Below are positions 2,884 to 35,977 of a stretch of 35,977 nucleotides of DNA, one piece after another. Position 1 is the stretch's first letter, and each line of letters begins with the position of its first letter. A program made the position numbers and the translations under genes. The stretch comes from an uncultured Nitrospirales bacterium. Lineage in GTDB: Bacteria; Nitrospirota; Thermodesulfovibrionia; UBA6902; BMS3Bbin08. Under the pieces are notes generated by a model. That model did no database searches. It was not told the DNA's origin and saw only the letters and a program-made list of their open reading frames with translations. The stretch is taken from the NCBI GenBank assembly GCA_964347425.1, contig CAYFYW010000212.1:1-35977 (forward strand), given 5' to 3'.

Positions 2884-4947
2884 ATGTGTCCTGGGAGGCT
2901 TCATGCGTACTGCTTACTGCTGACCGCTTACTGCCTGCTCCTTACCCCATCACATGCATCTGATGAACCCTTCATATATCCCTCAAACTATGGCGGCACA
3001 GGCCTCATGGAAATTCCAACAGCAAGAGTGATGAGGGAAAACAGCTACCGCATTGGTGCCAGCCAGATAGATCCTTACAGATACTTCTATGGTGCGGTAA
3101 GTCCAGTTAAAGGGCTGGAGGTAAATGGAAGAATAACTGAAGTTCTAAGGGTCCCTGCATTAACACAGGACTATGGCAATTTTAAAGACAAAACAATAGA
3201 CCTGAAATACCAGCTCATCCCCGAGGGTAAATATATGCCTGCTTTTGCAGTTGGATTCATGGACCCCCACGGTACAAGGGTTTATCCGTCCCAATACGTT
3301 GTAGTGAGTAAACAGATATACCCTTTTGACTTTACACTTGGGTTCGGCAACGGCAGGTTTGGCAAAGAACCGCTTCCTTCAGCAGGCGAAGGAATGAAAT
3401 TTGAGATGCTGAGCGACCCAATGGGATGGCTGGAAGATTCGAAGTTTTTCTGGGGTATTCAGTTTGCGCCTTCTGAAAAATATGCATTGATGTTGGAATA
3501 CAGCCCGATAAAATATCACGCACAGACAAGAGACCCTGCACAGGAGAAATACTTCAACGATCCTGTTCCTTCAAAATATAATTTTGGCTTCCGATACAAA
3601 CCTACAAGGTGGTCAGAAATTGATGTAAGCTATCAAAGGGGCGAACAGATAGGTGTTGACGTATCATTGACATTTGATATCGGCAAAACCCTGATACCGA
3701 TATACGACCGCCCCTACAGGGAAACCCTTGAGGACAGATTGAATCCACTGTCTGAAAGAATCACAAAGGCATTATACTTTTCGGGTTTTAGTGATATCGG
3801 CATTCTCATGCAGGGGGATGAGTTATGGATAGAGGCACAGAATGAAAAATATTTTTATAATACAAAAGCACTGGGAAGGATTCTCACTGCAGTTATTCAA
3901 GCTGTTCCCGAACATATCCGGAAAATTCATATTATCCTCAAGGAAAACGGAGTCCCGATAATTGATTTTTCAGCTCTGAAAGCGGATATCAATAACTATT
4001 ATTCCGGTGAACTCACGCTGAACGAATTCCTCTATGTATCAGAGATAAACACCGATGTATTGAAGACATTGGATATACCGGGAAGACATAAAAAATCCTT
4101 CAGATACAGATTTAGACCATCTTTAGAGACATTCCTGAATGATCCGTCAGGTTTTTTCAAATATAGATTAGGCGTCTCGGGATCGATGAGCTACCACCCC
4201 TGGAAAGGTGCATCTTTTGTCACCGGGCTTTCAACATACCCCATAAACAATATTTCTTCTGTTAATGAGCCTTTTTCCATCCCGGTCAGGTCAGACCTTG
4301 TTCTGTATACACAGGAGAGGTTTGCACTTGACAGATTGCTCTTTGACCAGATAAAAAAACTGACCCCGCACATATATGGTAAGGTCTCCGCAGGATTCCT
4401 GGAGGTTCAGTATGCAGGTATTGACGCAGAGGTTGCAATGCCTGTTCTTGATGGCAGAATACTTCTGGGTTTAAGCGGAAGTGCGGTAAAAAAAAGGGAT
4501 ATTAAACAGCCTTTTAACCTGAAGCGCAATGATGTCAAAGATATCTATACAACCGCATTCATAAATACACGTCTTAACCTCCCTGATCAGGAAATTTCAA
4601 TAGATATCAAAGCCGGCAGATTTCTGGCAGGCGACAACGGCGTGAGGTTTTCAGTGTCAAAATCTATAAACGGCATAATCCTCATGGCATGGTATACTGT
4701 TACGGATACGTCTGCTTTTACAGATGATTTCAACGATGGTTACCGGGACAAAGGAATTGGCATATCAATCCCGATAAGGTTATTTCAGGGTTCTGACTCA
4801 AGAACTGCTTACAGGTATGAAATCTCCCCATGGACGAGAGACACCGGACAGGACATAGACCACTTTGGCACGCTGTTTGATTTTATGGACAGAAACGTAA
4901 AGATTTTTCTTGACAAAGACAAAAAAATGATGTTTAATTCTAACTGA
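2884..4947 (+). CDS. YjbH/GfcD-family outer-membrane exopolysaccharide protein
   Basis: Matches remembered E. coli YjbH landmarks: YGGTGLMEIPTARVM (cf. FGGVGLLQTPTARM), NFKDKTIDLKYQL (cf. YKDKAFDLKLRL) and YVVVSKQIYPFDFTLGFGNG (cf. YLVASK..PFDFTLGLGWG). The N-terminal signal peptide ends SHA/S. Confidence 0.88.
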   Translation: MCPGRLHAYCLLLTAYCLLLTPSHASDEPFIYPSNYGGTGLMEIPTARVMRENSYRIGASQIDPYRYFYGAVSPVKGLEVNGRITEVLRVPALTQDYGNFKDKTIDLKYQLIPEGKYMPAFAVGFMDPHGTRVYPSQYVVVSKQIYPFDFTLGFGNGRFGKEPLPSAGEGMKFEMLSDPMGWLEDSKFFWGIQFAPSEKYALMLEYSPIKYHAQTRDPAQEKYFNDPVPSKYNFGFRYKPTRWSEIDVSYQRGEQIGVDVSLTFDIGKTLIPIYDRPYRETLEDRLNPLSERITKALYFSGFSDIGILMQGDELWIEAQNEKYFYNTKALGRILTAVIQAVPEHIRKIHIILKENGVPIIDFSALKADINNYYSGELTLNEFLYVSEINTDVLKTLDIPGRHKKSFRYRFRPSLETFLNDPSGFFKYRLGVSGSMSYHPWKGASFVTGLSTYPINNISSVNEPFSIPVRSDLVLYTQERFALDRLLFDQIKKLTPHIYGKVSAGFLEVQYAGIDAEVAMPVLDGRILLGLSGSAVKKRDIKQPFNLKRNDVKDIYTTAFINTRLNLPDQEISIDIKAGRFLAGDNGVRFSVSKSINGIILMAWYTVTDTSAFTDDFNDGYRDKGIGISIPIRLFQGSDSRTAYRYEISPWTRDTGQDIDHFGTLFDFMDRNVKIFLDKDKKMMFNSN

Positions 4948-6801: not shown

Positions 6802-7161
6802 ATGGGAAAGCTTACAATAGGTTGTTTTGCTTCACTTGTCGGGTCCTTGAATCTTGATTTTGCGGTAAAGCTCGCGGGCGCTGCGATAGACAAGGGTCAT
6901 AAAGTGGACTTATGGGTTTCGGGTAATGCAACAATGCTGTCAATCCAGGACCAGAGACCCTTTAAGGATTATTCTTATCTCGAAAAGCCCTTGAAGGAAC
7001 TCATGGCGAAAGGGCTCAATGTTACAGCTTGTGAGGCATGTGCGGAAGCAAGAGGCTATCATAAAGAAAATACCATGGAAGGCTTTAAAAGACACAGTAT
7101 GGACTGGTATCTTGCAAGTGCTTTTGACGCTGACAGGGTCCTTCATATAGGAGGTGAGTGA
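6802..7161 (+). CDS. DsrE/TusD-family sulfur relay protein
   Basis: 119 aa. GHKVDLWVSGNA...GLNVTACEACAEARG places Cys77 where TusD/DsrE Cys78 sits (VC.....RG). RBS aggagg upstream. Confidence 0.7.
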   Translation: MGKLTIGCFASLVGSLNLDFAVKLAGAAIDKGHKVDLWVSGNATMLSIQDQRPFKDYSYLEKPLKELMAKGLNVTACEACAEARGYHKENTMEGFKRHSMDWYLASAFDADRVLHIGGE

Positions 7162-7987: not shown

Positions 7988-8049
7988 AGACATTTTAAAT
8001 TAAATATGTTTTGTTTTCTCTGAGAACTCTGTGGCAAAAAAGATTTTTT
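7988..8049 (+). repeat. partial copy of the CACAGAG-type repeat unit
   Basis: 35 nt (agacattttaaattaaatatgttttgttttctctg) are identical to 12985-13019. The following ctctgtggcaaaaaagatttttt is the reverse complement of 12852-12874. Confidence 0.8.
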
Positions 8050-10249: not shown

Positions 10250-10277
10250 ATTTTGATTTTTGATATTTGAATTTTGA
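10250..10277. repeat. four tandem heptamers NTTTTGA directly upstream of the usp start codon
   Basis: attttga tttttga tatttga attttga. Confidence 0.8.
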
Positions 10278-10287
10278 TTTTTTTCGC

Positions 10288-11481
10288 TTACAGTCCGCTT
10301 AAATCCCACTTCTCAAGGTCTTTTCTTATGCTTTCTATACCCCTCTTTTCATCTATAGCCTTGACAACGTTTCTGTAATGAGAATTATCTCCGTACAGAA
10401 TACATCCTGCGAGCACGTTGTCTTTTATAACGAGCTTTTTATATATGTATTTAGCCCTATCTTTATGAACGATGGATTCGGATTTGCCCTCAACATCTAT
10501 ATCTCCTGCAGCCGCAAGGTCAATGCCTGCGACTTTCAGGACATTTGATGGTGTTGTGCCCCCGTACACTGCACTGCCCCCGGCCATGTTTTCCCCCGCA
10601 ATTTCTCCCTGCTTCTGAGACGCGGGCCATATACCGTAAAATATCCCCCTGTGCTCTATTAAATCTCCTGCTGCATAAATATCCTTTATCTCTGTTTCCA
10701 TTGTTTCATTGACCACCAGACCCCTGTTAATTGTAAGACCAAGTTTTCTGGCTAATTCTGCCCGGGGCCTTATTCCGGCAGAGATGATTACTAATTCGCA
10801 GTCAATCTTTGTTCCGTCTTCAAGAAGGATACCTTGAACTTTATCATCCCCCAATATCTCCCTGGATTTTGCCCCGAGGTAAAAGGTAAAACCCATGCTA
10901 TCCAGCTGGTCCTTGAGTATTTCAGATCCTTCAGTGTCCATCTGTCTCGGGAGAAGGCGGTGGGAAAATTCGACTACAGTCACTTCGTGCCCTGTTTTTC
11001 TCAGACTGTTACCTGCCTCAAGACCGAGCACACCGCCCCCGATAAGAAGGATCTTTTTGATAGCTCCTGCGTACTCTATAATTTCCCGAGCGTCCCTTAA
11101 TGATCTTAAGGTAAATACCCCTTTCTTGTCAGAACCCTTTATAGGCGGGATAAAAGAAATCCCGCCTGTTGCAAGAAGCAGTTTGCCATATTCCAGCACT
11201 TCTCCTTTTTCAGTTATGATCTGTTTTTTATTGTTATCTATTTCAGAAACACGTGTGTTCAGCAAAAGGTTAAGATTATTTTTTTTATACCATATGTCTT
11301 CATGGATAATTAATCCTTTTTCACCTACTTCCCCTGCAAGATAGTCTATTAATCTTATGCGGCTGTAAAAAGGATACGACTCGTCAGTGAGGATAGTTAT
11401 TTCGCCGCTCCGGTCTATTTTCCTGATTTGAGAGGCTGCCGATGTTCCTGCAACACCGTTGCCTATGATTATGTATTTCAT
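10288..11481 (-). CDS. FAD-dependent pyridine nucleotide-disulfide oxidoreductase (NirB-N/rubredoxin-reductase-like)
   Basis: Two Rossmann dinucleotide motifs (IIIGNGVAGTSAA and LLIGGGVLGLEAG) and the AAGD motif (IYAAGDLIE). Confidence 0.85.
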   Translation of the reverse strand: MKYIIIGNGVAGTSAASQIRKIDRSGEITILTDESYPFYSRIRLIDYLAGEVGEKGLIIHEDIWYKKNNLNLLLNTRVSEIDNNKKQIITEKGEVLEYGKLLLATGGISFIPPIKGSDKKGVFTLRSLRDAREIIEYAGAIKKILLIGGGVLGLEAGNSLRKTGHEVTVVEFSHRLLPRQMDTEGSEILKDQLDSMGFTFYLGAKSREILGDDKVQGILLEDGTKIDCELVIISAGIRPRAELARKLGLTINRGLVVNETMETEIKDIYAAGDLIEHRGIFYGIWPASQKQGEIAGENMAGGSAVYGGTTPSNVLKVAGIDLAAAGDIDVEGKSESIVHKDRAKYIYKKLVIKDNVLAGCILYGDNSHYRNVVKAIDEKRGIESIRKDLEKWDLSGL

Positions 11482-11502
11482 GAAAAAGTTAAAAATTCAC
11501 TG

Positions 11503-11784
11503 CCGTCCAAAACAATCATAATCAGGCAGGCCGGTCGATGACCTGTAGAGATGCCTGATAAACATAACTAAACCCCTGATGATCTGCAGAGCAGGAGATA
11601 GTATTTGAATGGTTTCGTTTATTCAGTGAAATATGTTTCACTGAATAAACGCCTCGGAGACCCGAGCGAAGTCGAGGGATGAGAATGAATGAAAATACTA
11701 TCTCCTGCTATCTCCTACGTTAAAAGCCAGCGATTCATTGTGCTTATGAGGTGTTCAGCCTCCATAAATACTTTATCCTGGATA
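11503..11784 (+). repeat. MITE-like modular repeat, copy A (full length, about 282 bp)
   Basis: Ends ccgtccaaaacaa ... ttatcctggata. Shares both conserved arms with copies at 26177-26368, 35772-35977 and, inverted, 33761-33893. Confidence 0.85.
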
Positions 11785-11797
11785 TGTATGTCAGAAA

Positions 11798-12508
11798 TTA
11801 TTTTCTATCGGCATCTGTTTTCTGCTGCAGGAATTTTCTCAGAACTTCGGCTAATTTAGAAGGCGGGGTCACCATTTTTAAAAGAAAATCATCTGCACCG
11901 GCACTGGTAACCGCGTCCCGCACATCGTCTGTGTATTTTTTAGATAAAACTATCAGGGGGATGTCTTTCCATTCAGGTGAACCTCTTATTGCTGACAGTA
12001 CTTCAAATCCGTCCGTTTTATCCATAAAAAGGTCAATAACCACTATGTCAACCGGCTGCTCTTCAAGAGCCTTGATGGCGTCGATTCCATTCGTCGCTTC
12101 GACAACCCAGAAACCTTCAAGGCTTAGTTCGCTTTTCATGATTTTTCGGGACATGGTATTATCGTCAACTAACAGGACCCCTGGTTTGTCCCTTTTCGGC
12201 ATGGGAGGTTTTCTCTTTATATCCTCTATTAATTCTTCAATTTTAGCTTTCTGGATATCATCCAGATCTATAAATCTTAGCCCTATCCCGACTCCTGCAT
12301 GCTCGTATTTAATTCTCGCTTTAATTTTTAATTCTTCACTATCAATCGGCAAACTGATCTCAACCACGCTGCCAGCCTGAAAAGGGTGATCGGTATGCAC
12401 ATACAGACCGCCTTTACTTATATCAATCGACTGAACGGTAATCGTGCTGTTAATCATGATTCTCTCATGGTAGGGGATTCTTTCCTGTGCTCGCTGTTTA
12501 TTATCCAT
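11798..12508 (-). CDS. PilZ domain / response-regulator receiver hybrid protein
   Basis: N-terminal PilZ motifs RAQER (RxxxR) and DISKGG (DxSxxG). C-terminal REC domain (VLLVDDN...VVIDLFMDKTDG...LIVLS...DFLLK). Confidence 0.82.
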   Translation of the reverse strand: MDNKQRAQERIPYHERIMINSTITVQSIDISKGGLYVHTDHPFQAGSVVEISLPIDSEELKIKARIKYEHAGVGIGLRFIDLDDIQKAKIEELIEDIKRKPPMPKRDKPGVLLVDDNTMSRKIMKSELSLEGFWVVEATNGIDAIKALEEQPVDIVVIDLFMDKTDGFEVLSAIRGSPEWKDIPLIVLSKKYTDDVRDAVTSAGADDFLLKMVTPPSKLAEVLRKFLQQKTDADRK

Positions 12509-12625: not shown

Positions 12626-12711
12626 GTCATTCCCGAGGTAGTAATCGGGAATCCATTGTCTTTCTGAAACGAATAAAACCTGGATTCCCGCTTAAGGACT
12701 GCGGGAATGAC
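12626..12711. repeat. GTCATTCCCG...CGGGAATGAC hairpin repeat
   Basis: Outer inverted ends gtcattccc / gggaatgac. Two inner 8-bp hairpins (attcccga/tcgggaat and attcccgc/gcgggaat). A second copy lies at 32508-32601. Confidence 0.8.
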
Positions 12712-12865
12712 GGCTCAAAATACTCAAAACAAATGTAAAGAACCGTTAGTAACAGCACACTAGCCCCCGTAAAATAATAAACATATAACGGGGCAGGCAC
12801 AGAGATAAAACTAAATATAACCAAGAAATAAGCAACTCATTAATTTTTCTAAAAAAATCTTTTTT

Positions 12866-13042
12866 GCCACAGAGTTCACAGAGAGCACAGAGTTTAAGTT
12901 CAAAAAAAAAGTAAACTAAATTAAGGAACTGTCGAACGGGGCATTAACCCCACTCGACAGATATGTTTATGTGGTATTCATCAAAGACATTTTAAATTAA
13001 ATATGTTTTGTTTTCTCTGTGCTCTCTGTGAACTCTGTGGCT
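12866..13042. repeat. element bounded by a perfect 27-bp inverted repeat built of CACAGAG nonamers
   Basis: gccacagagttcacagagagcacagag (12866-12892) is the exact reverse complement of 13016-13042. The 123-bp core contains the hairpin ctgtcga..gggg..cccc..tcgacag. Confidence 0.9.
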
Positions 13043-17491: not shown

Positions 17492-17614
17492 AGATTGCTG
17501 TACCCCCCTTCCTTATACTGCCTAAAACAGGCGATTGACCCCTTAAAATAATAAATTCTTAACGGGGTATGGCTGTCCCAAAGCAGCTCAATTCAGGTAC
17601 TGATCAGGCAGTGG

Positions 17615-25404: not shown

Positions 25405-26022
25405 TTATTCGGGATTTAACATCTCATTTTCATTAAATTCCATATCATCTTGGATATCTGCCCCGGGCTGAGCCAGGGGAAATTCGGCAATTTTGCTGTA
25501 CCTCGCCCCAGCAGGATTCAGGTCGCTTCTCATCAGGGATATTGATTCGACATTGACTGATCCAAAAATATCTTTTTCGTGGAGCTTAACTGCTTTCATG
25601 AGATCTTCTTTTCCCGCTGCAGATCTGAATCTACCGAGAGTAAGGTGCGCAGTAAATTTTCTCTTCTCCTGCTTAAATCCTAAATTGGCTATCCCCTCAT
25701 CAATCTCTCTTTGAATCTCTGTCAGTATCCTGCTGCTATTGATACTCACCCATAAGACCCTCGGAGATCTTGTACCGGGAAAGACACCCACGCCTGTCAT
25801 TTCAAGACCAAAGGCAGTATACCGACTGCAAATTTCTTTCATTATTTCCGTTATCTTATCAACTTCCCCTTTATCAATACTTCCAAGGAATTTTAAAGTA
25901 AGATGGATATTCTCCGGTTTGACCCATCGGACATCAGCCCCGTATTTTTTAAACTCCTGCTGAAGTTCTGCCATGGCAGATTTTAGTGTGTCCGGTATTT
26001 CAATGGCTATAAAACTTCTCAA
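25405..26022 (-). CDS. thpR: RNA 2',3'-cyclic phosphodiesterase (2'-5' RNA ligase family)
   Basis: Two HxT/S motifs (HLTLKFLG and HLTLGRF). TTG start, then RSFIAIEIP. Confidence 0.85.
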   Translation of the reverse strand: MRSFIAIEIPDTLKSAMAELQQEFKKYGADVRWVKPENIHLTLKFLGSIDKGEVDKITEIMKEICSRYTAFGLEMTGVGVFPGTRSPRVLWVSINSSRILTEIQREIDEGIANLGFKQEKRKFTAHLTLGRFRSAAGKEDLMKAVKLHEKDIFGSVNVESISLMRSDLNPAGARYSKIAEFPLAQPGADIQDDMEFNENEMLNPE

Positions 26023-26090
26023 GGTTTTCTGTCAATAATTCAATTTTCGCCTACTTTATAGATAGAATACCACAGATCAATTAAAATAAA

Positions 26091-26127
26091 AATTCCAAAT
26101 TCCAATCCCGGAATTCCAAATCCCGGG
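26091..26127. repeat. tandem heptamers AATTCCA / AATCCCG upstream of thpR
   Basis: aattcca aattcca atcccgg aattcca aatcccg. 20 nt match the recA-upstream tract at 25384-25403 with one mismatch. Confidence 0.8.
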
Positions 26128-26176
26128 CTATCAAAAATATCGGTTAATCAGATTCAAATATTGTTTAAAACCACTA

Positions 26177-26368
26177 CTGTCAAAAATAACCATGAACAGG
26201 AAGGCTGGTCGATGACCTGCAGAGATGCCCGATAAACATAACTACACCCTTTGGCGATCTGCATAGCAGGAGATAGTATTTGAGCGAAGTCGAGGGACAA
26301 GGTCAAAATCCGGCAATTCATTATGTTTATGAGGTGTTCAGCCTCCGCAAATTCTTTATTTTGGACAG
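26177..26368 (+). repeat. MITE-like modular repeat, copy B (192 bp, lacks the inner hairpin module)
   Basis: ctgtcaaaaataa ... ttattttggacag termini, with both conserved arms present. Confidence 0.85.
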
Positions 26369-26378
26369 GTATGGTGAT

Positions 26379-26825
26379 TTATAATATCTGCCTTAATAGT
26401 TGCATGCTCAGATTGGTATAAACTGCGGCTAACACATCATCCAGCATAATGCCTGCACCACCCCGAACAAGCCCTTCAATTTGTCTTATGGGCGGCGGCT
26501 TCAGTATATCGAAAACTCTGAATAAGACGAATGCTGTGAGAAGATAACCTGTGCTTTTTGGAATTAGTATGACCGAGAGCAGATATCCGGAAAATTCGTC
26601 TATGACTATATGACTGCTATCTTTGCCAAGGACTTTTTCGGCATTGTGTGAAGTTAACAAACCGAGAAGAAACATTGGTAAAAAAATCATGAGAAGTTCA
26701 AGATCGTCGGGTCCAAGTAAAATTATGAGTAAAAGGCCCGGTGCCGAGCCAAAGGTACCCGGGGCATGTGGAAGATAACCGATAAAGCCCAGTGTTGCGA
26801 TTGCCTGCTGAATTTTTTTAGTCAA
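26379..26825 (-). CDS. pgpA: phosphatidylglycerophosphatase A
   Basis: ATLGFIGYLPHAPGTFGS...VIDEFSG...FR.FDI.KP.P...E pattern. Confidence 0.88.
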   Translation of the reverse strand: MTKKIQQAIATLGFIGYLPHAPGTFGSAPGLLLIILLGPDDLELLMIFLPMFLLGLLTSHNAEKVLGKDSSHIVIDEFSGYLLSVILIPKSTGYLLTAFVLFRVFDILKPPPIRQIEGLVRGGAGIMLDDVLAAVYTNLSMQLLRQIL

Positions 26826-28138: not shown

Positions 28139-29127
28139 AACCTCACGGTAGAACGACCAAATCTTCAAATACCGTAATTATTATTCTCGGACCGACCGGT
28201 GTTGGTAAAACTGGTCTGTCTGTCCTTCTCGCAGAAACCTTAAATACAGAAATCATAAGCGCAGATTCTATGCAGATTTACCGTCATATGGACATAGGAA
28301 CTGGCAAACCTTCACAAAGGCAACTGGAAAAAGTAAAACATCACCTGATTAACATATTATCTCCCAGAGAATCTTTCAGTGCCGGCATGTTTAAAAAGAT
28401 GGCGACAAAAATCATAGATGAGCTGCACAGAAAATGTAAAATCCCAATAATTGTGGGGGGAACAGGTCTTTATATAAAGACTCTCACGAGGGGCCTGTTT
28501 GAAGGACCCGGCGCTGACTGGTCATTGAGAGAAAAATTGAGAGAGGAAGAGAGATATTTCGGTAAAGGATATCTCTATCGACATCTCAAGCAGGTTGACC
28601 CTTTATCTGCAGGCAAAATCAATCCAAATGATACAAGAAGAATAATCAGGGCACTCGAAGTTTCACTGAAAGGCGGTAAGACAATCTCGGAGCTTCAGCA
28701 TGTATCAACCGTGTCTCTACCGTATAATTTTGTCAAGATAGGACTTTTAAGGGAAAGAAAACAGCTATACAAACTCATAGAAGAGAGGGTTGATGACATG
28801 ATGGAGAGAGGTCTTTTACAGGAGACAGAGACGCTCCTAAGAAAGAGTCCCCATAGAACCCCCTTACAGTCACTCGGGTATAAGGAAATGCAACTTTATC
28901 TCAAAGGCGCTCTCGGTTTCGAACATGCCGTAAGGCTTTTAAAAAAACGTACAAAAATGTATGCTAAAAGACAGTTTACGTGGTTTAAGAGAGAATCCGG
29001 CATTAGCTGGATAGACATAACAGACATTATGGATGCAGACAAGATTTATGAGAAGGTCATAAATGATGTTGATATTCTGAGAGAAATACTTTATGTTAAA
29101 AAATCTTATAAAAAACAAGATGTCTAA
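28135..29127 (+). CDS. miaA: tRNA dimethylallyltransferase
   Basis: P-loop ILGPTGVGKTGLS, SADSMQIYRHMDIGTGKP, IVGGTGLY, YAKRQ.TWF. TTG start overlaps the GT2 stop by 4 nt. Confidence 0.94.
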   Translation: MKPHGRTTKSSNTVIIILGPTGVGKTGLSVLLAETLNTEIISADSMQIYRHMDIGTGKPSQRQLEKVKHHLINILSPRESFSAGMFKKMATKIIDELHRKCKIPIIVGGTGLYIKTLTRGLFEGPGADWSLREKLREEERYFGKGYLYRHLKQVDPLSAGKINPNDTRRIIRALEVSLKGGKTISELQHVSTVSLPYNFVKIGLLRERKQLYKLIEERVDDMMERGLLQETETLLRKSPHRTPLQSLGYKEMQLYLKGALGFEHAVRLLKKRTKMYAKRQFTWFKRESGISWIDITDIMDADKIYEKVINDVDILREILYVKKSYKKQDV

Positions 29128-29133
29128 TCAGTA

Positions 29134-29211
29134 CTGTCCAAAATAATATAAAAAGAAGGCGGGCTTGCCCGCCAAATCTGTAAAGGCGGGATGCATTTCT
29201 GTTTTGGACAG
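29134..29211. repeat. MITE-like repeat, short copy E (78 bp) between miaA and hfq
   Basis: ctgtccaaaataa ... ctgttttggacag termini. Inner GC hairpin ggcgggc tt gcccgcc. Flanked by the 12-bp direct repeat gatgtctaatca (29119-29130 and 29216-29227). Confidence 0.8.
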
Positions 29212-29261
29212 ATGTGATGTCTAATCAAGGATAATAAATATATATTATAACGGGAGATTCT

Positions 29262-29501
29262 ATGGGCAATAAGAGCCATGACTTGCAGGACCTCTACCTC
29301 AATTCCTTAAGAAAGGAAAAGATTCCGGTTGTGGTATATCTAACAAACGGAGCACGCCTGAGGGGGGTAATAAAGGGTTTCGATAATTTTGTGATTTTAT
29401 TTAAACAGGAAAAGCAGCAGCTTGTGTACAAACATGCCATTTCCACGATAATTCCAGAGAGAGATGTTGCCTTAAATCGTGAAAATGCCAGGGGAGAATG
29501 A
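29262..29501 (+). CDS. hfq: RNA chaperone Hfq
   Basis: Sm1/Sm2 motifs: [40 protein letters not shown]...[11 protein letters not shown]. Confidence 0.96.
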
Positions 29502-31399: not shown

Positions 31400-32422
31400 A
31401 TGTTGGTAAATCTTTTAGTAAAGCCGGGCGTGCTTGAATTAAGAGAGGTTAAGACCCCGAGGCCGTCACCCGGCGAAGTTCTCGTAAAGATAAAGGCTGC
31501 TCTTACCTGCGGGACAGACTTGAAGGCGTTCAGGAGAGGGCATCCTGTGATACCAATGCCAACGGTCTTTGGCCACGAGTTTTCAGGCGTTGTGGAGGAT
31601 GTCGGCAGAGGTGTAAAAAAATTCTCAAGGGGTATGGATATAATGGCTGTCCACAGCGCTCCGTGCGAAAAATGTTATTTCTGTAAAAAACAACTGTACA
31701 ATCTCTGTGAGGGCCTAATGAAAACAAAAGTTCTCGGCGCCTTTGCAGAATATATTTTATTGCCAAAACATATTGTTAAACATAATGCCTTTATAAAGCC
31801 GGAAAGACTCTCCTTTCAGGAAGCAGCTTTTTTAGAACCTCTTTCCTGTGTGATACACAGCGTCAACTCCGTCAGCATGTCCAGAGGAGATACTGCTCTG
31901 ATATTTGGAGCCGGCGCTATTGGATTGCTGCATTTAATGGCTTTAAAAACAATGGGTATTAAAGCGATTGTCGTTGACAAACAAGAAACACGTCTTGGAA
32001 AGGCAGTCGAGGCAAAATCGGATATTGTGGTAAATGCTGACAGAGAAGACGTTCATGGAAAGATTATGGACTTTACGGGAAAAAGGGGTGTTGATGTTGT
32101 ATTTGAATGCACCGGGGCACATGAGGTATGGGAAAACTCTGTCTGGCTTGTCCGTAAAGGTGGAACGGTTATACTGTTCGGGGGATGTAGGCAGGGAACA
32201 CGGGTTGCTTATGATGCAGGGAGGATTCACTATGATGAGATAACCCTTAAAGGCGTTTTTCACTACAAACCTTCTGATGTGGCAAAGGCATATAATCTTC
32301 TTTCTCAAGGAAAAATGACAGTGGACAGACTGATTTCAGGAGAATATCCCCTCCAGGGGCTGAAAAAAGCATTTGACAGGCTGATGGCCGGTGAGGGAAT
32401 AAAATATGCGATTATTCCTTAA
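31400..32422 (+). CDS. Zn-dependent medium-chain alcohol/polyol dehydrogenase
   Basis: GHEFSGVVEDVG catalytic-Zn motif, structural-Zn Cys cluster CEKCYFCKKQLYNLC and Rossmann IFGAGAIG. Confidence 0.86.
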   Translation: MLVNLLVKPGVLELREVKTPRPSPGEVLVKIKAALTCGTDLKAFRRGHPVIPMPTVFGHEFSGVVEDVGRGVKKFSRGMDIMAVHSAPCEKCYFCKKQLYNLCEGLMKTKVLGAFAEYILLPKHIVKHNAFIKPERLSFQEAAFLEPLSCVIHSVNSVSMSRGDTALIFGAGAIGLLHLMALKTMGIKAIVVDKQETRLGKAVEAKSDIVVNADREDVHGKIMDFTGKRGVDVVFECTGAHEVWENSVWLVRKGGTVILFGGCRQGTRVAYDAGRIHYDEITLKGVFHYKPSDVAKAYNLLSQGKMTVDRLISGEYPLQGLKKAFDRLMAGEGIKYAIIP

Positions 32423-32507
32423 AGCGCGGATTGACACAGATTAAAAAAGCAGATTGGCACAGATAAAGACAATTATTGACTCACGCATAAATAATGTCCG
32501 CTTTTTC

Positions 32508-32601
32508 GTCATTCCCGAAATTCTTGATCGGGAATCCATGTTTTAAGTTTTTACCTCTGGATTCCCCGACCTGCCTGCCGGCAGGCAGGTCGGGGAATGA
32601 C
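32508..32601. repeat. GTCATTCCCG...GGGGAATGAC hairpin repeat, second copy
   Basis: gtcattcccga..tcgggaatcc plus the perfect 16-bp palindrome arms ccccgacctgcctgcc/ggcaggcaggtcgggg. Confidence 0.8.
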
Positions 32602-32663
32602 AGCACTATCAGTATATAGGGCATTATTATTACGACTATCAATAGTGATTATATACGTATCAG

Positions 32664-33686
32664 ATGAAAGTCGCTAAACTCTACAGTTTCAACGATATCC
32701 GTATTGAGGACGTGCCGGTTCCCGAGATTGGCCCGGATGATGCACTGGTCAGGGTCAAGGCATGCGGCATCTGTTCAGGTGATGTCATGCCATGGTATAT
32801 AGAGACAAAAGCCCCGCTTGTCCTTGGCCATGAGCCGGCGGGGGAGATGGTCAAGGTAGGCCGCATGGTTAAAAACTTCAAATATGGTGACAGGGTATTT
32901 TTTCATCACCATGCCCCCTGCTTCATTTGCAAATACTGTAAAAAGGGCGACTATGTTCAATGCCACACATGGAAGGATTCAAAGATAATCCCGGGTGGTA
33001 TATCAGAATATGCACTCATTCCCCGGGTAAACTTGCAGGGCGACACGCTCCTGCTCCGGGGAAAAGTTTCTTTTGAAGAGGCTACGCTTATTGAGCCGGT
33101 TGCCTGCGTTGTAAAAGGATTGAAGAGGGCTAAAGTCAGACAGGGAGACACGGTCCTTGTAATGGGACTCGGTGTTATGGGACAGATACATATCATACTT
33201 GCGAAAAGATATGGTGCTGAAAAAATAATAGGAGCAGATAGGATACCTTATCGGCTTCAACATGCAAAGGAATTCGGAGCCCACGCTGTTATTGATGTAT
33301 CAAGCGTCGAATTTGCGGATGCAATAGTCAACGAGACCGGCGGAGAGATGGCAGACGTTGTGGTAGTCGGTCCCGGGGATGTTGAAGCAATGTCTCAGGG
33401 TATTGGTTGTGCCGGCAGAGGGGGCAGGGTGCTTTTTTTTACACCGGCAGGACCGGAAGACGTGCTTCGTATCAAGCCAAATGAAATATACTTCAGGGAT
33501 ATAAACATTATAACCAGTTACTCCTGCGGACCTGACGATACTAAAGAGGCACTTGCCCTTATATCAGATGGTGTAATTAATACGGAGCGTCTTATTACAC
33601 ACAAATTCCCCATCGAAAAAACCTCAGAGGCCTTCAGGCTTACTGCCGCGGCAAAAGACTCTCTTAAGGTAGTGGTTACAATATGA
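32664..33686 (+). CDS. Zn-dependent medium-chain alcohol/threonine dehydrogenase-like protein
   Basis: CGICSGD, GHEPAGEMVKVG, Cys cluster CFICKYCKKGDYVQC and Rossmann VMGLGVMG. Confidence 0.86.
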   Translation: MKVAKLYSFNDIRIEDVPVPEIGPDDALVRVKACGICSGDVMPWYIETKAPLVLGHEPAGEMVKVGRMVKNFKYGDRVFFHHHAPCFICKYCKKGDYVQCHTWKDSKIIPGGISEYALIPRVNLQGDTLLLRGKVSFEEATLIEPVACVVKGLKRAKVRQGDTVLVMGLGVMGQIHIILAKRYGAEKIIGADRIPYRLQHAKEFGAHAVIDVSSVEFADAIVNETGGEMADVVVVGPGDVEAMSQGIGCAGRGGRVLFFTPAGPEDVLRIKPNEIYFRDINIITSYSCGPDDTKEALALISDGVINTERLITHKFPIEKTSEAFRLTAAAKDSLKVVVTI

Positions 33687-33760
33687 GACCAAAATCCGTT
33701 AACCCGAATAATGCAGATATTGTTCAAGAAATAAAATAAATCAAAGATCAGAAATCATGA

Positions 33761-33893
33761 CTGTCCAAAAAAGCATTTATGGAGGCCGAACACCTCATAA
33801 CCACAATGAATCGATCAGAGATTCGCCGCGGCGAACAGGTCTCTTGAATGTCAAACCTCATCCAGCCCCCCTGTTCATGATTATTTTGGACGG
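33761..33893 (-). repeat. MITE-like modular repeat, copy D (133 bp, inverted relative to A/B/C, different core)
   Basis: ctgtccaaaaaagcatttatggaggccgaacacctcataaccacaatgaatcg is the reverse complement of the right arm of copies A and B. It ends ttattttggacgg. Confidence 0.8.
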
Positions 33894-33959
33894 TACTGAA
33901 TTCGGATACAAAGGAGACACCGGGGTATTCAATTTTGGCCATCCATGGTATATTTTTAT

Positions 33960-34961
33960 ATGCCGGCCAATCTGCCACCAGAGTATTTTGAGGCGGAACA
34001 GAAATTTAAACAGGCGAAAAGTCCTTCTGAGAAGATCGCATCTCTCAGGGAGCTTATAGCCACTGTTCCCAAGCACAAGGGCACAGACAAACTGAGGGCG
34101 GACTTAAGAAGAAGGCTCTCCAAATTAAAAGAAGAGAGCGTCAGGAAAAAGAAAACAGGCAAAGGCGACCTGTACACCGTTGACAAAGAGGGCGCCTTGC
34201 AGATAGCTCTCGTTGGACTTCCGAATTCAGGGAAATCATCTTTGCTGAAAAGCCTCACAAATGCCCGGCCTGTTATTGCCAGTTACCCGTTGTCAACGGT
34301 TATACCCCTTTCAGGAATGATGCCTTTTGAGGATATCCAGTTTCAGCTCGTGGACTTGCCGCCCATAGGAAATGAGTCCACGGACGGCTGGGTTTCGGGA
34401 ATCCTCAGAAATGCAGATTTTTTCCTGCTCGTCATCGACCTTTCAGACGAACCGGACATTCAGGCAGAGATTCTCATGAATCAGCTAACCAGATGGAATA
34501 TTGGCATGGCCAGGAAACGGGAGGTTATCGAAAGCAGGGAGGATTCGGCAGCAGGTGAAAAAAGCAGCCGTAAAAAGGTCATCATTGTGGCGAATAAGAT
34601 GGACGTGCCCGGTGCGGAAGAGGGGTTCAGGAAGCTGTGGGAAATGTATGAGGACGCTTATCCCGTTATTGCCGTCTCATTAGAGAAAAAAAATGTCCTT
34701 GAGGCCCTTAAGAGAACTATATTTGAGGTCTCAGGGATTATCAGGGTATACACAAAAGAGCCTGGAAAGGATCCTGACCTCGGAGAGCCTTTTACGGTAC
34801 CATCGGGAACTACGGTTCTGGAACTTTCAGAGATGATTCACAAGGATTTTGTCAGGAATCTGAAATATGCCTGCATCTGGGGCTCTTCAAGGTTCCCCGG
34901 CCAGAGGGTTCAGAAAGACCATGTTTTGCAGGATAAGGACGTCGTTGAATTTCATCTGTAA
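33960..34961 (+). CDS. DRG/Rbg-like OBG-HflX-superfamily GTPase with C-terminal TGS domain
   Basis: N-terminal helical HKGTDKLRADLRRRLSKLKEE (cf. DRG NKATE.HLG.LKAKLAKLR). G1 GLPNSGKSS, G3 VDLPP, G4 ANKMD. TGS-like C-terminus IRVYTKEPG....P......TV..L...IH.DF......A..WG. Confidence 0.8.
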   Translation: MPANLPPEYFEAEQKFKQAKSPSEKIASLRELIATVPKHKGTDKLRADLRRRLSKLKEESVRKKKTGKGDLYTVDKEGALQIALVGLPNSGKSSLLKSLTNARPVIASYPLSTVIPLSGMMPFEDIQFQLVDLPPIGNESTDGWVSGILRNADFFLLVIDLSDEPDIQAEILMNQLTRWNIGMARKREVIESREDSAAGEKSSRKKVIIVANKMDVPGAEEGFRKLWEMYEDAYPVIAVSLEKKNVLEALKRTIFEVSGIIRVYTKEPGKDPDLGEPFTVPSGTTVLELSEMIHKDFVRNLKYACIWGSSRFPGQRVQKDHVLQDKDVVEFHL

Positions 34962-35559: not shown

Positions 35560-35640
35560 ATGGCAATTATAAGTCTATTGAGCAATCCATGCAAGCCCTC
35601 CATTCTGGTTATCCTTTTACAAAGATAAAAGACCAAATAA

Positions 35641-35700
35641 TTTCAAATTCCAATAATCAAATCACAATAACCAAATAATTACCAATATCCAAATTCCAGA
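35641..35700. repeat. CCAAAT/CCAAT-type short repeat tract upstream of marC
   Basis: tttcaaattccaataatcaaatcacaataaccaaataattaccaatatccaaattccaga. Confidence 0.6.
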
Positions 35701-35771
35701 CACATCGCTTGTAACGAATCACGATCTTTTTACCTATAAACTCTTTTTACATTTAATATTCATTTACTATT

Positions 35772-35977
35772 ATCCAAGACAAACATAATCAGGAAGGCTG
35801 GTCGATGACCTGTAGAGATGCCTAATAAACATACCTACACCCCTGGCGATCTGCAGAGCAGGAGATAGTATTTGAATGGTTTCGTTTATTCAGTGAAACA
35901 TGTTTCACTGAATAAACGCCTCGGAGGCCCGAGCGAAGCCGAGGGACGAGAATGAATGAAAATACTATCTCCTGCTA
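35772..35977 (+). repeat. MITE-like modular repeat, copy C (truncated by the window end)
   Basis: Near-identical to copy A through the left arm, the 16-bp outer stem and the inner hairpin module. Confidence 0.85.

Follow-up and report, generated by a model that had tools for sequence, protein, structure and literature searches.

A MITE family with 9-bp target-site duplications and a uniform orientation of its long copies relative to flanking genes in DNA of an uncultured, Nitrospirota-like bacterium

The window analysed here, a complete contig of 35,977 bp, contains a dense family of five repeat copies (A to E) within 36 kb. The family is a MITE, that is, small, non-coding and transposed, because several copies are bounded by 9-bp duplications, because the empty site of one copy can be reconstructed, because the copies lie at unrelated loci and because the element has no coding capacity. 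The MITE-like reading of the preliminary description, which had been offered beside a structured-RNA reading, therefore stands. All long copies that could be scored lie the same way relative to their neighbouring genes. Jointly, these features are very probably explained by a 9-bp-duplicating MITE that is moved in trans and co-transcribed with flanking genes, and whose orientation is kept by selection. MITEs have been little studied in bacteria, and this family offers a well-defined case, in which the ends are clear, the duplication measures 9 bp and certain targets are preferred. Its orientation is the one feature that deserves follow-up; otherwise it is an ordinary kind of element.

The copies follow a common plan, in which a left arm of about 37 nt and a right arm of about 58 nt flank cores that are unrelated to one another or partly deleted, the two arms being imperfect inverted repeats of each other (Table 1). 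All five copies are present at the positions originally proposed. Repeat finding yields a 216-nt pair between A and C (92%), an 83-nt group common to A, B and C (83%) and a 72-nt match between the right sides of A and B (82%), and it shows D matching both arms of A and B in inverted orientation. Alignment gives common ends and differing middles, as had been described. Profile HMMs of the arms match A, B, C and D, the four copies for which shared arms had been claimed, together with the left end of E (29129-29151 on the + strand, E = 0.0027), with no further match in the window. In 100 shuffles the right-arm 20-mer TTATGAGGTGTTCNGCCTCC never appears, as against three occurrences in the window, and CTGTCCAAAA with at most one mismatch occurs 13 times in the window as against 3.6 +/- 1.8 expected. 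The consensus of the left end is CACTACTGTCCAAAATAATCATAAACAGGGAGGCTGG and that of the right end is ATTCATTGTGTTTATGAGGTGTTCAGCCTCCATAAATACTTTATTTTGGACAGGTATG. The copies of the preliminary description are real, but their ends had been placed too far inwards: aligned flanks put the true tips, CA(C/G)TAC at the left end and G(T/C)ATG at the right end, 5 nt further out on each side. The tips are degenerate at the right of A and at the left of C. Copy C runs off the contig, and its right end (...CTCCATAAATGCTTTTTTGGACAGTCATG) is present at 3708-3736 of the overlapping contig L016.

Table 1. Positions, structure, neighbouring genes and flanking 9-mers of the repeat copies, and positions of a second hairpin family (L-numbers, contigs or loci outside the window; matches, identical positions between the two 9-mers)
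Feature	Position	Strand	Structure	Neighbouring genes	Gene pair in strict orientation set	Left 9-mer	Right 9-mer	Matches
Copy A	11498-11790	+	293 nt, full length; left arm 11498-11534, right arm 11733-11790	PilZ/response-regulator gene 11798-12508 (-); rubredoxin-reductase-like gene 10288-11481 (-)	response regulator, oxidoreductase	11489-11497 TTAAAAATT	11791-11799 TCAGAAATT	7/9
Core of A	11590-11709	+	also in C; in B with two internal deletions					
Copy B	26172-26373	+	202 nt; left arm 26172-26208, right arm 26316-26373	pgpA 26379-26825 (-); LigT-like gene 25405-26022 (-)	pgpA, LigT	GTTTAAAAC	GTGATTTAT	3/9
Copy C	35765-35977	+	cut by contig end; left arm ~35766-35801, degenerate tip TACTATTATCCAAG	marC (-) left, cupin gene (+) right; divergent pair, from overlapping contig L016		ATATTCATT	ACACTCAAT	6/9
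Copy D	33756-33898	-	143 nt; right arm 33756-33811, left arm 33862-33898	alcohol dehydrogenase gene 32664-33686 (+); ribosome-binding GTPase gene 33945-34961 (+)	ADH, GTPase	ATCCGAATT	ATTTCTGAT	3/9
Copy E	29129-29216	+	88-nt mini element: both tips, left-arm remnant, GC hairpin core	miaA 28135-29127 (+); 79-aa ORF 29262-29501 (+)		29120-29128 ATGTCTAAT, contains miaA stop codon	29217-29225 ATGTCTAAT	9/9
L016b	6868-6904 of L016		solo left arm		ksgA, S8 peptidase			
L001					GNAT, response regulator	GTCCGGGAG	GTCATGGAT	6/9
L003					FMN/4Fe-4S protein, hisG	ATTTTTGAT	AGACGGTAC	2/9
L006					psd, pssA	GTTTGTAAC	GTTTGTAAC	9/9
L009					ruvA, ruvB			
L010						ATCAATTAA	ATATTTAAT	4/9
(C)GTCATTCCCG-loop-CGGGAATCC hairpins	12626-12654, 12682-12712, 32507-32537, 32559-32603		second repeat family					

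The arms are joined by two helices, one formed by the terminal repeat and the other by GGAGGCTGG paired with TTCAGCCTCC, and the arm pairing covers 90.6% of cells (26 pairs in seven complete copies). Whole copies fold into a rod on either strand, so that the long imperfect hairpin expected from partly complementary arms is borne out. The cores fall into three types besides that of E. Type I (L001, L003 and L010; about 220-240 nt) contains AAACACAATGA-CGAC, which also pairs with GTCGATTCATTGTGTTT, so that a rod of roughly 45 bp results. Type II is the short form shared by D, L002 and L011. Type III, found in A and C, contains nested perfect palindromes: in A, a perfect 17-nt inverted repeat, AGCAGGAGATAGTATTT (11590-11606) and AAATACTATCTCCTGCT (11693-11709), encloses a 36-nt palindrome (11616-11651) and small GC hairpins. 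Copy B is a deletion derivative of this type.

The element has stops in all frames, or frames that are not conserved, and its longest open frame has no match among 5.8 billion proteins. A small ORF starting from ATGGAGGC on the gene-sense strand was rejected: its start codon varies (ATG/GTG/TTG/ACG/GCG), it has no ribosome-binding site and the frames diverge after about 12 residues. Separately, a 100-aa ORF (33757-34059, +) begins in copy D and enters the GTPase gene out of frame; it matches nothing in Pfam and is an artefact that the repeat produces. Because spurious ORFs such as this one cross the repeat, annotators should mask it.

Target-site duplications of 9 bp lie directly outside the tips, with agreement ranging from complete in E and L006 to six positions in C and L001 (Table 1). 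Non-self control pairings give a mean of 3.6 matches of 9. The chance of a 9/9 match is about 2.5e-5 per copy, and at least six matches in five of the nine complete copies correspond to a binomial tail of 8e-4. A recognisable duplication is absent from the other four complete copies (B, D, L003 and L010), which is attributed to their age. When the copy in L006 and one of its duplications are deleted, the flanks join to form GCTGGTTCAGGTT-TGT-AACCTGAACCAGC, a perfect palindrome with a 13-bp stem downstream of psd, and this rebuilt palindrome is therefore independent evidence of insertion. The palindrome is located at 2593-2611 and 2832-2850 of L006, and the copy occupies its loop. The right flank of L007 (GTTTATAACCTGAA) is related to this palindrome and lies beside a different gene; therefore, the palindrome may itself be a repeated sequence.

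In the flanking 9-mers of both sides, R-T occupies positions 1-2 and A-Y positions 8-9 (AT-rich, R-T-N5-A-Y), which indicates a target preference. The element often follows a stop codon directly or occupies a hairpin loop. Before insertion, the two genes that flank A were separated by only 14 nt, and the right duplication of A overlaps the TAA stop of the upstream gene by 2 nt. Because the 9-mer overlaps the upstream stop codon in A, B and E (11791-11800, 26374-26382 and 29120-29128), insertion regenerates the stop and the protein is not extended. Intergenic AT-rich tracts of short period (TTCCAAAT, ACCAAATAAT, ATCAAAN) are found at 26084-26118, 35632-35704 and 10254-10279, adjoining the left arms of B and C and also downstream of the gene at 10288, and L003, L009 and L010 also have such tracts in their flanks; the element may land preferentially in DNA of this kind. 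The motif ATCTTTGAT, seen beside D, L009 and L010, is not enriched in the window and probably reflects the AT-rich target preference.

The family has the properties by which a MITE is recognised: terminal inverted repeats closed by defined tips, a duplication of fixed length, small non-coding copies of 88-293 nt and multiple unrelated loci, namely five in the window, one arm in L016 and nine in other contigs. In agreement with the preliminary description, no transposase gene was found in the window, where 39 of the 40 gene-sized ORFs were compared with Pfam; the one left out is the 79-aa ORF downstream of E, which is read as a putative hfq from its translation rather than from a database match. 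Neither was a transposase found among the scanned neighbours at the other loci. The length of the duplication, 9 bp, would be consistent with IS4, the IS903 group of IS5, IS256/Mutator-like elements, ISAs1 or IS1. Full copies gave no BLAST match among plasmids and phages, right-arm and left-arm patterns gave none among viral contigs, a literature string search for the terminal repeat returned only unrelated primers, and no paper naming both MITEs and Nitrospirae was found in the literature searched.

A scan of species-representative genomes detected a single copy, L001 (WVZO01000407.1). It is a full copy, 94% identical to L003 (JABAOF) and about 95% identical to L010 (JABAOH). The 1.1-kb contig that carries it was binned as Candidatus Aminicenantes, although the window proteins look Nitrospirota-like; this contig may be mis-binned, or the element may occur in a second lineage. 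Among 14 matches in a metagenome scan, nine are true copies (L002, L003, L006, L007, L008, L009, L010, L011 and L013), and the other five are chance matches inside GC-rich coding sequence. L008 is the locus of copy B, 99.8% identical in a metagenome contig, and L016 overlaps the right end of the window and also holds the solo left arm L016b. Sequences from different loci are not similar beyond the element borders, apart from about 14 nt common to L006 and L007. The sample amounts to about 15 copies; because nine of them were obtained through the exact right-arm 20-mer, conservation of the right arm is biased, and orientation is unaffected.

DNA nearly identical to the window is present in the metagenome assembly GCA_012974965.1 (JABAOF). 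A data paper about deep sediments of the Gulfs of Kathiawar (PMC8319310) cites the sister accession JABAOH, and JABAOF presumably comes from the same study. The nine copies of the metagenome scan belong to these same sediment metagenomes. The ribosome-binding GTPase of the window has at most 73% identity to anything else, and the nearest named relatives are Candidatus Mariimomonas, Sulfobium and Thermodesulfovibrionales. Exact-protein look-ups found no record for four of five window-encoded proteins and added only L016. The host is an uncultured lineage of marine sediment that resembles Nitrospirota. The genes in the window are ordinary chromosomal ones, such as alaS, recA, recX, pgpA, miaA, dsrEFH/tusA and a zinc ABC transporter. 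No empty allele came out of a presence/absence comparison: the same copies are found in the organism's other assemblies, and the closest relatives, at about 70% protein identity (71% for the GTPase), have loci that are not syntenic with the window. L016 has runs of N at 1553-1559, 3547-3707 and 6812-6813, at copies D and C, and contigs L011 and L013 start within a copy, so the repeat breaks or masks metagenome assemblies.

The orientation of the long copies is uniform. With + defined as left arm first, each scored long copy is antisense to its neighbours, in 12 of 12 cases (two-sided binomial 0.0005). A strict set of copies between two Pfam-supported co-directional genes (A, B, D, L016b, L001, L003, L006 and L009; Table 1) gives 8/8 (two-sided binomial 0.008), and the copies with one identified neighbour, L002, L007, L010 and L011, agree in all four cases. 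Copy C, with its divergent genes, L013, which is ambiguous, and the mini-copy E were left out of the count. The bias proposed from the window is thus real and has become larger with more copies; the accompanying statement that all copies lie between co-directional genes is wrong for C. Replication direction was considered as the cause of the orientation and rejected, because C (+) and D (-) are opposite within 2 kb.

The same pair of copies bears on a quite different origin, namely that the family consists of REP/REPIN elements with a RAYT (Y1), or of an IS200/IS605-derived palindrome moved as single-stranded DNA. Hairpin-forming inverted ends and an orientation bias typical of single-strand transposition would agree with such an origin, and the CTAC-containing tip resembles the REP tetranucleotide. 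However, orientation follows transcription and not replication, the arms are AT-rich and not individually palindromic, unlike the short GC-rich palindromes of REP, no Y1 transposase gene (Y1_Tnp) is present in the window, and elements of this kind make no duplication and have no long terminal inverted repeats. Because the present family has both, it is not a REP/REPIN or IS200/IS605 derivative, and this origin is extremely improbable.

Given that the bias is genuine, a transcription-level effect stays plausible. Copies lie inside operons, between ruvA and ruvB in L009 and between psd and pssA in L006; A entered its 14-nt spacer, and E is placed between miaA and the putative hfq. Many copies being so placed, they would be co-transcribed with their neighbours. 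The mini-copy E appears to run against the orientation rule, its left-arm profile match being on the + strand. On its minus strand, positions 29173-29158 form a terminator-like hairpin, GGCGGGCAAGCCCGCC followed by TTCTTTTTAT, which is the strongest such site in the 27-36 kb part of the window and is directed against miaA and the ORF that follows; when read on the plus strand, this GC segment can pair in two ways (GGCGGGC/GCCCGCC or CCCGCC/GGCGGG). Because E appears to lie the opposite way, its terminator-like hairpin faces away from both genes, a direction that would fit selection against sense-strand terminators.

Orientation might instead be set at the moment of insertion, by a machinery that reads an asymmetric feature at the 3' end of a gene, such as a terminator-like hairpin, the transcribing polymerase or an asymmetric target motif. 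In A, B, L006 and L011, the right arm comes to within 20 nt of the stop codon upstream; for the solo left arm L016b, the distance from the truncated end to the upstream stop is 13 nt, and L006 sits in the hairpin loop downstream of psd. The reversed copy E, with its left tip 1 nt from a stop, can be counted in the same sense, but it is also an opposite insertion at the very same kind of site. On the + strand of the element, the target 9-mer is rich in T at its centre; however, this enrichment (8/13) does not reach significance and agrees with coding strands being A-rich in general, and the outer target positions are palindromic (R-T...A-Y), as for a symmetric dimer that inserts either way. Such a mechanism is therefore unlikely.

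The folding of the copies is strong, and on both strands it far exceeds that of shuffled sequences. The gene-sense RNA of copy A folds at -96.5 kcal/mol with a z-score of -5.85, and copy D has a z-score of -2.25 (dinucleotide shuffles); across all copies, z-scores range from -1.2 to -7.8 (mononucleotide shuffles). In the arms, zero pairs are altered on both sides among seven close sequences, a comparison of low power, and the covariation score of the arm alignment of the seven close copies is 0.075, below the shuffled mean of 0.090. Arm substitutions break pairs, as expected of decaying inverted repeats. Because the copies are few and closely similar, the power of these tests is limited; at this low power, nothing supports a selected RNA structure in the arms. 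No Rfam match was obtained in the elements of the window and five loci at the gathering score or at E<=1, so the family matches no ncRNA catalogued there.

These results speak against the structured-RNA reading of the preliminary description. If the copies were non-mobile genes for structured non-coding or cis-regulatory RNAs, their inverted ends being RNA helices, then the rod-like folds with significant z-scores and the orientation bias would be accounted for; the unrelated cores of different copies and the missing Rfam match and covariation would not, and no promoter or terminator is consistently associated with the copies. The 9-bp duplications, together with the reconstructable empty site, largely refute this reading, which is very improbable. 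The orientation bias is more economically explained by selection on a co-transcribed MITE than by an RNA gene.

It is also conceivable, but quite unlikely, that the MITE has been co-opted by its host, so that a transcribed hairpin of fixed orientation serves as an operon-internal RNA module (RNase III/E site, stabiliser or attenuator). The uniform orientation, the locations in housekeeping operons and the strong fold agree with such a role, as does the fact that the mini-copy E, which is reversed, is without right-arm features. In the hairpin CGCTGCTTAT/ATAAGCGGTG of L001, L003 and L010, two G-U pairs of the gene-sense strand are A-C mismatches on the other strand, but three wobble pairs in the extension of the second arm helix favour the opposite strand; consensus wobble pairs thus favour different strands in different helices. 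A hand count of wobble-compatible mismatches in the terminal helix gives 9 on the gene-sense strand as against 6 on the other. Co-option is further opposed by the lack of compensatory changes and of covariation above the shuffled mean, and no conserved unpaired motif was identified. That a hairpin fixed one way in housekeeping operons is an RNA-level module for expression or stability, or else that insertion reads the direction of transcription, is improbable even when the two are taken together; if true, the family would be a clean natural case of a MITE with a functionally constrained orientation.

Orientation-dependent selection on co-transcribed insertions is, we infer, the likeliest cause of the bias. 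The element inserts through a 9-bp staggered cut at an AT-rich site, leaving a 9-bp duplication, and would be moved by a transposase supplied in trans by an insertion sequence with matching ends. The cores have been reshaped by deletion and module exchange, and the copies decay afterwards. Copies in operons would be transcribed within the mRNA, where the inverted arms would fold into a long, rod-like hairpin. The opposite orientation would impair the expression of flanking genes through polarity, cleavage or spurious initiation, and insertions of that kind would then be lost.

A comparison of terminators, promoters, energies and composition found no feature in the sequence that explains such harm. 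On neither strand do the long copies contain a canonical terminator, no promoter-like site was predicted within the copies of the window or in L003, and the copy in L006 has four weak promoter-like sites (9/12), which is near chance. The two strands have similar folding energies and base composition, and no strand asymmetry in these or in G-U content is consistent. A ribosome-binding site with an ATG (GGGAGGCTGGATG), present only on the + strand, is a candidate for the harmful feature; by analogy with ERIC, another candidate is a nuclease site exposed in one orientation (PMC10969869, PMC3049150). If selection acts as proposed, read-through or mRNA stability should be measurably different for the two orientations, and the strict orientation in operons lends itself to simple tests of how small repeats and transcription interact.

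The window holds other repeats besides this family. Short hairpins of the form (C)GTCATTCCCG-loop-CGGGAATCC occur in both orientations in two long intergenic regions (Table 1) and look REP-like; one intergenic region rich in them separates two tandem 340-aa zinc alcohol dehydrogenase genes (31400-32422 and 32664-33686). A third repeat consists of AAAAAATCTTTTTTGCCACAGAGTTCACAGAGAGCACAGAG and its inverse, which lie 122 nt apart as a perfect inverted repeat of 27 nt (12852-12892 with 12985-13041), and has a related copy at 7988-8049; it may be another MITE-like element of about 190 nt. The hairpin CCCCGTAAAATAATAAACATATAACGGGG occurs at 12765-12793 and 17539-17567 with 83% identity.

Several known systems share parts of this organisation. 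BOX elements of Streptococcus pneumoniae also have conserved end modules with a variable middle and occupy intergenic positions within transcription units (PMC3049150), but they contain tandemly variable boxB units, have no 9-bp duplication and bear no sequence relation to the present family. ERIC elements of enterobacteria and Yersinia resemble it as imperfect palindromes in transcribed intergenic regions, with size variants that arise from internal indels. The effect of ERIC on mRNA depends on its orientation, an RNase E site being exposed one way (PMC10969869, PMC3049150, PMC3184786). However, ERIC is about 127 bp long, ends in TA, occurs in both orientations and belongs to another host phylum, with unrelated sequence. 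Correia elements (CREE/NEMIS) of Neisseria are co-transcribed MITEs whose hairpins are cut by RNase III (PMC10969869, PMC3184786). Their inverted ends and internal deletion variants are like those found here, whereas their TA duplication, 26-bp repeats, IHF sites and promoter elements were not found in the present family. Where ERIC and Correia elements duplicate TA, the present family duplicates 9 bp. To our knowledge, the consensus of the present family shares no sequence with either.

Two other families are also comparable. QMITE2 of Coxiella burnetii has a core of 113-145 bp with inverted repeats of 23-29 bp; its direct repeats measure 7-9 bp, and its transcript folds strongly (PMC10969869, figure 2). 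Its sequence and host are unrelated, and it is not known to follow an orientation rule. MITEAba12 of Acinetobacter, which is mobilised by ISAba12, is likewise small and non-coding, with terminal inverted repeats, 9-bp duplications and AT-rich targets (PMC6382973). Recognisable duplications are retained by 40% of MITEAba12 copies (PMC6382973) as compared with about half in the present family. The inverted repeats of MITEAba12 (GGCTTTGTTGCA...; PMC6382973) show no sequence similarity to those described here. Furthermore, MITEAba12 has 16-bp repeats, a uniform length of 113 bp and no orientation preference (PMC6382973), whereas the present family combines arms of about 37 and 58 nt, lengths of 88-293 nt and mosaic cores with a strict orientation.
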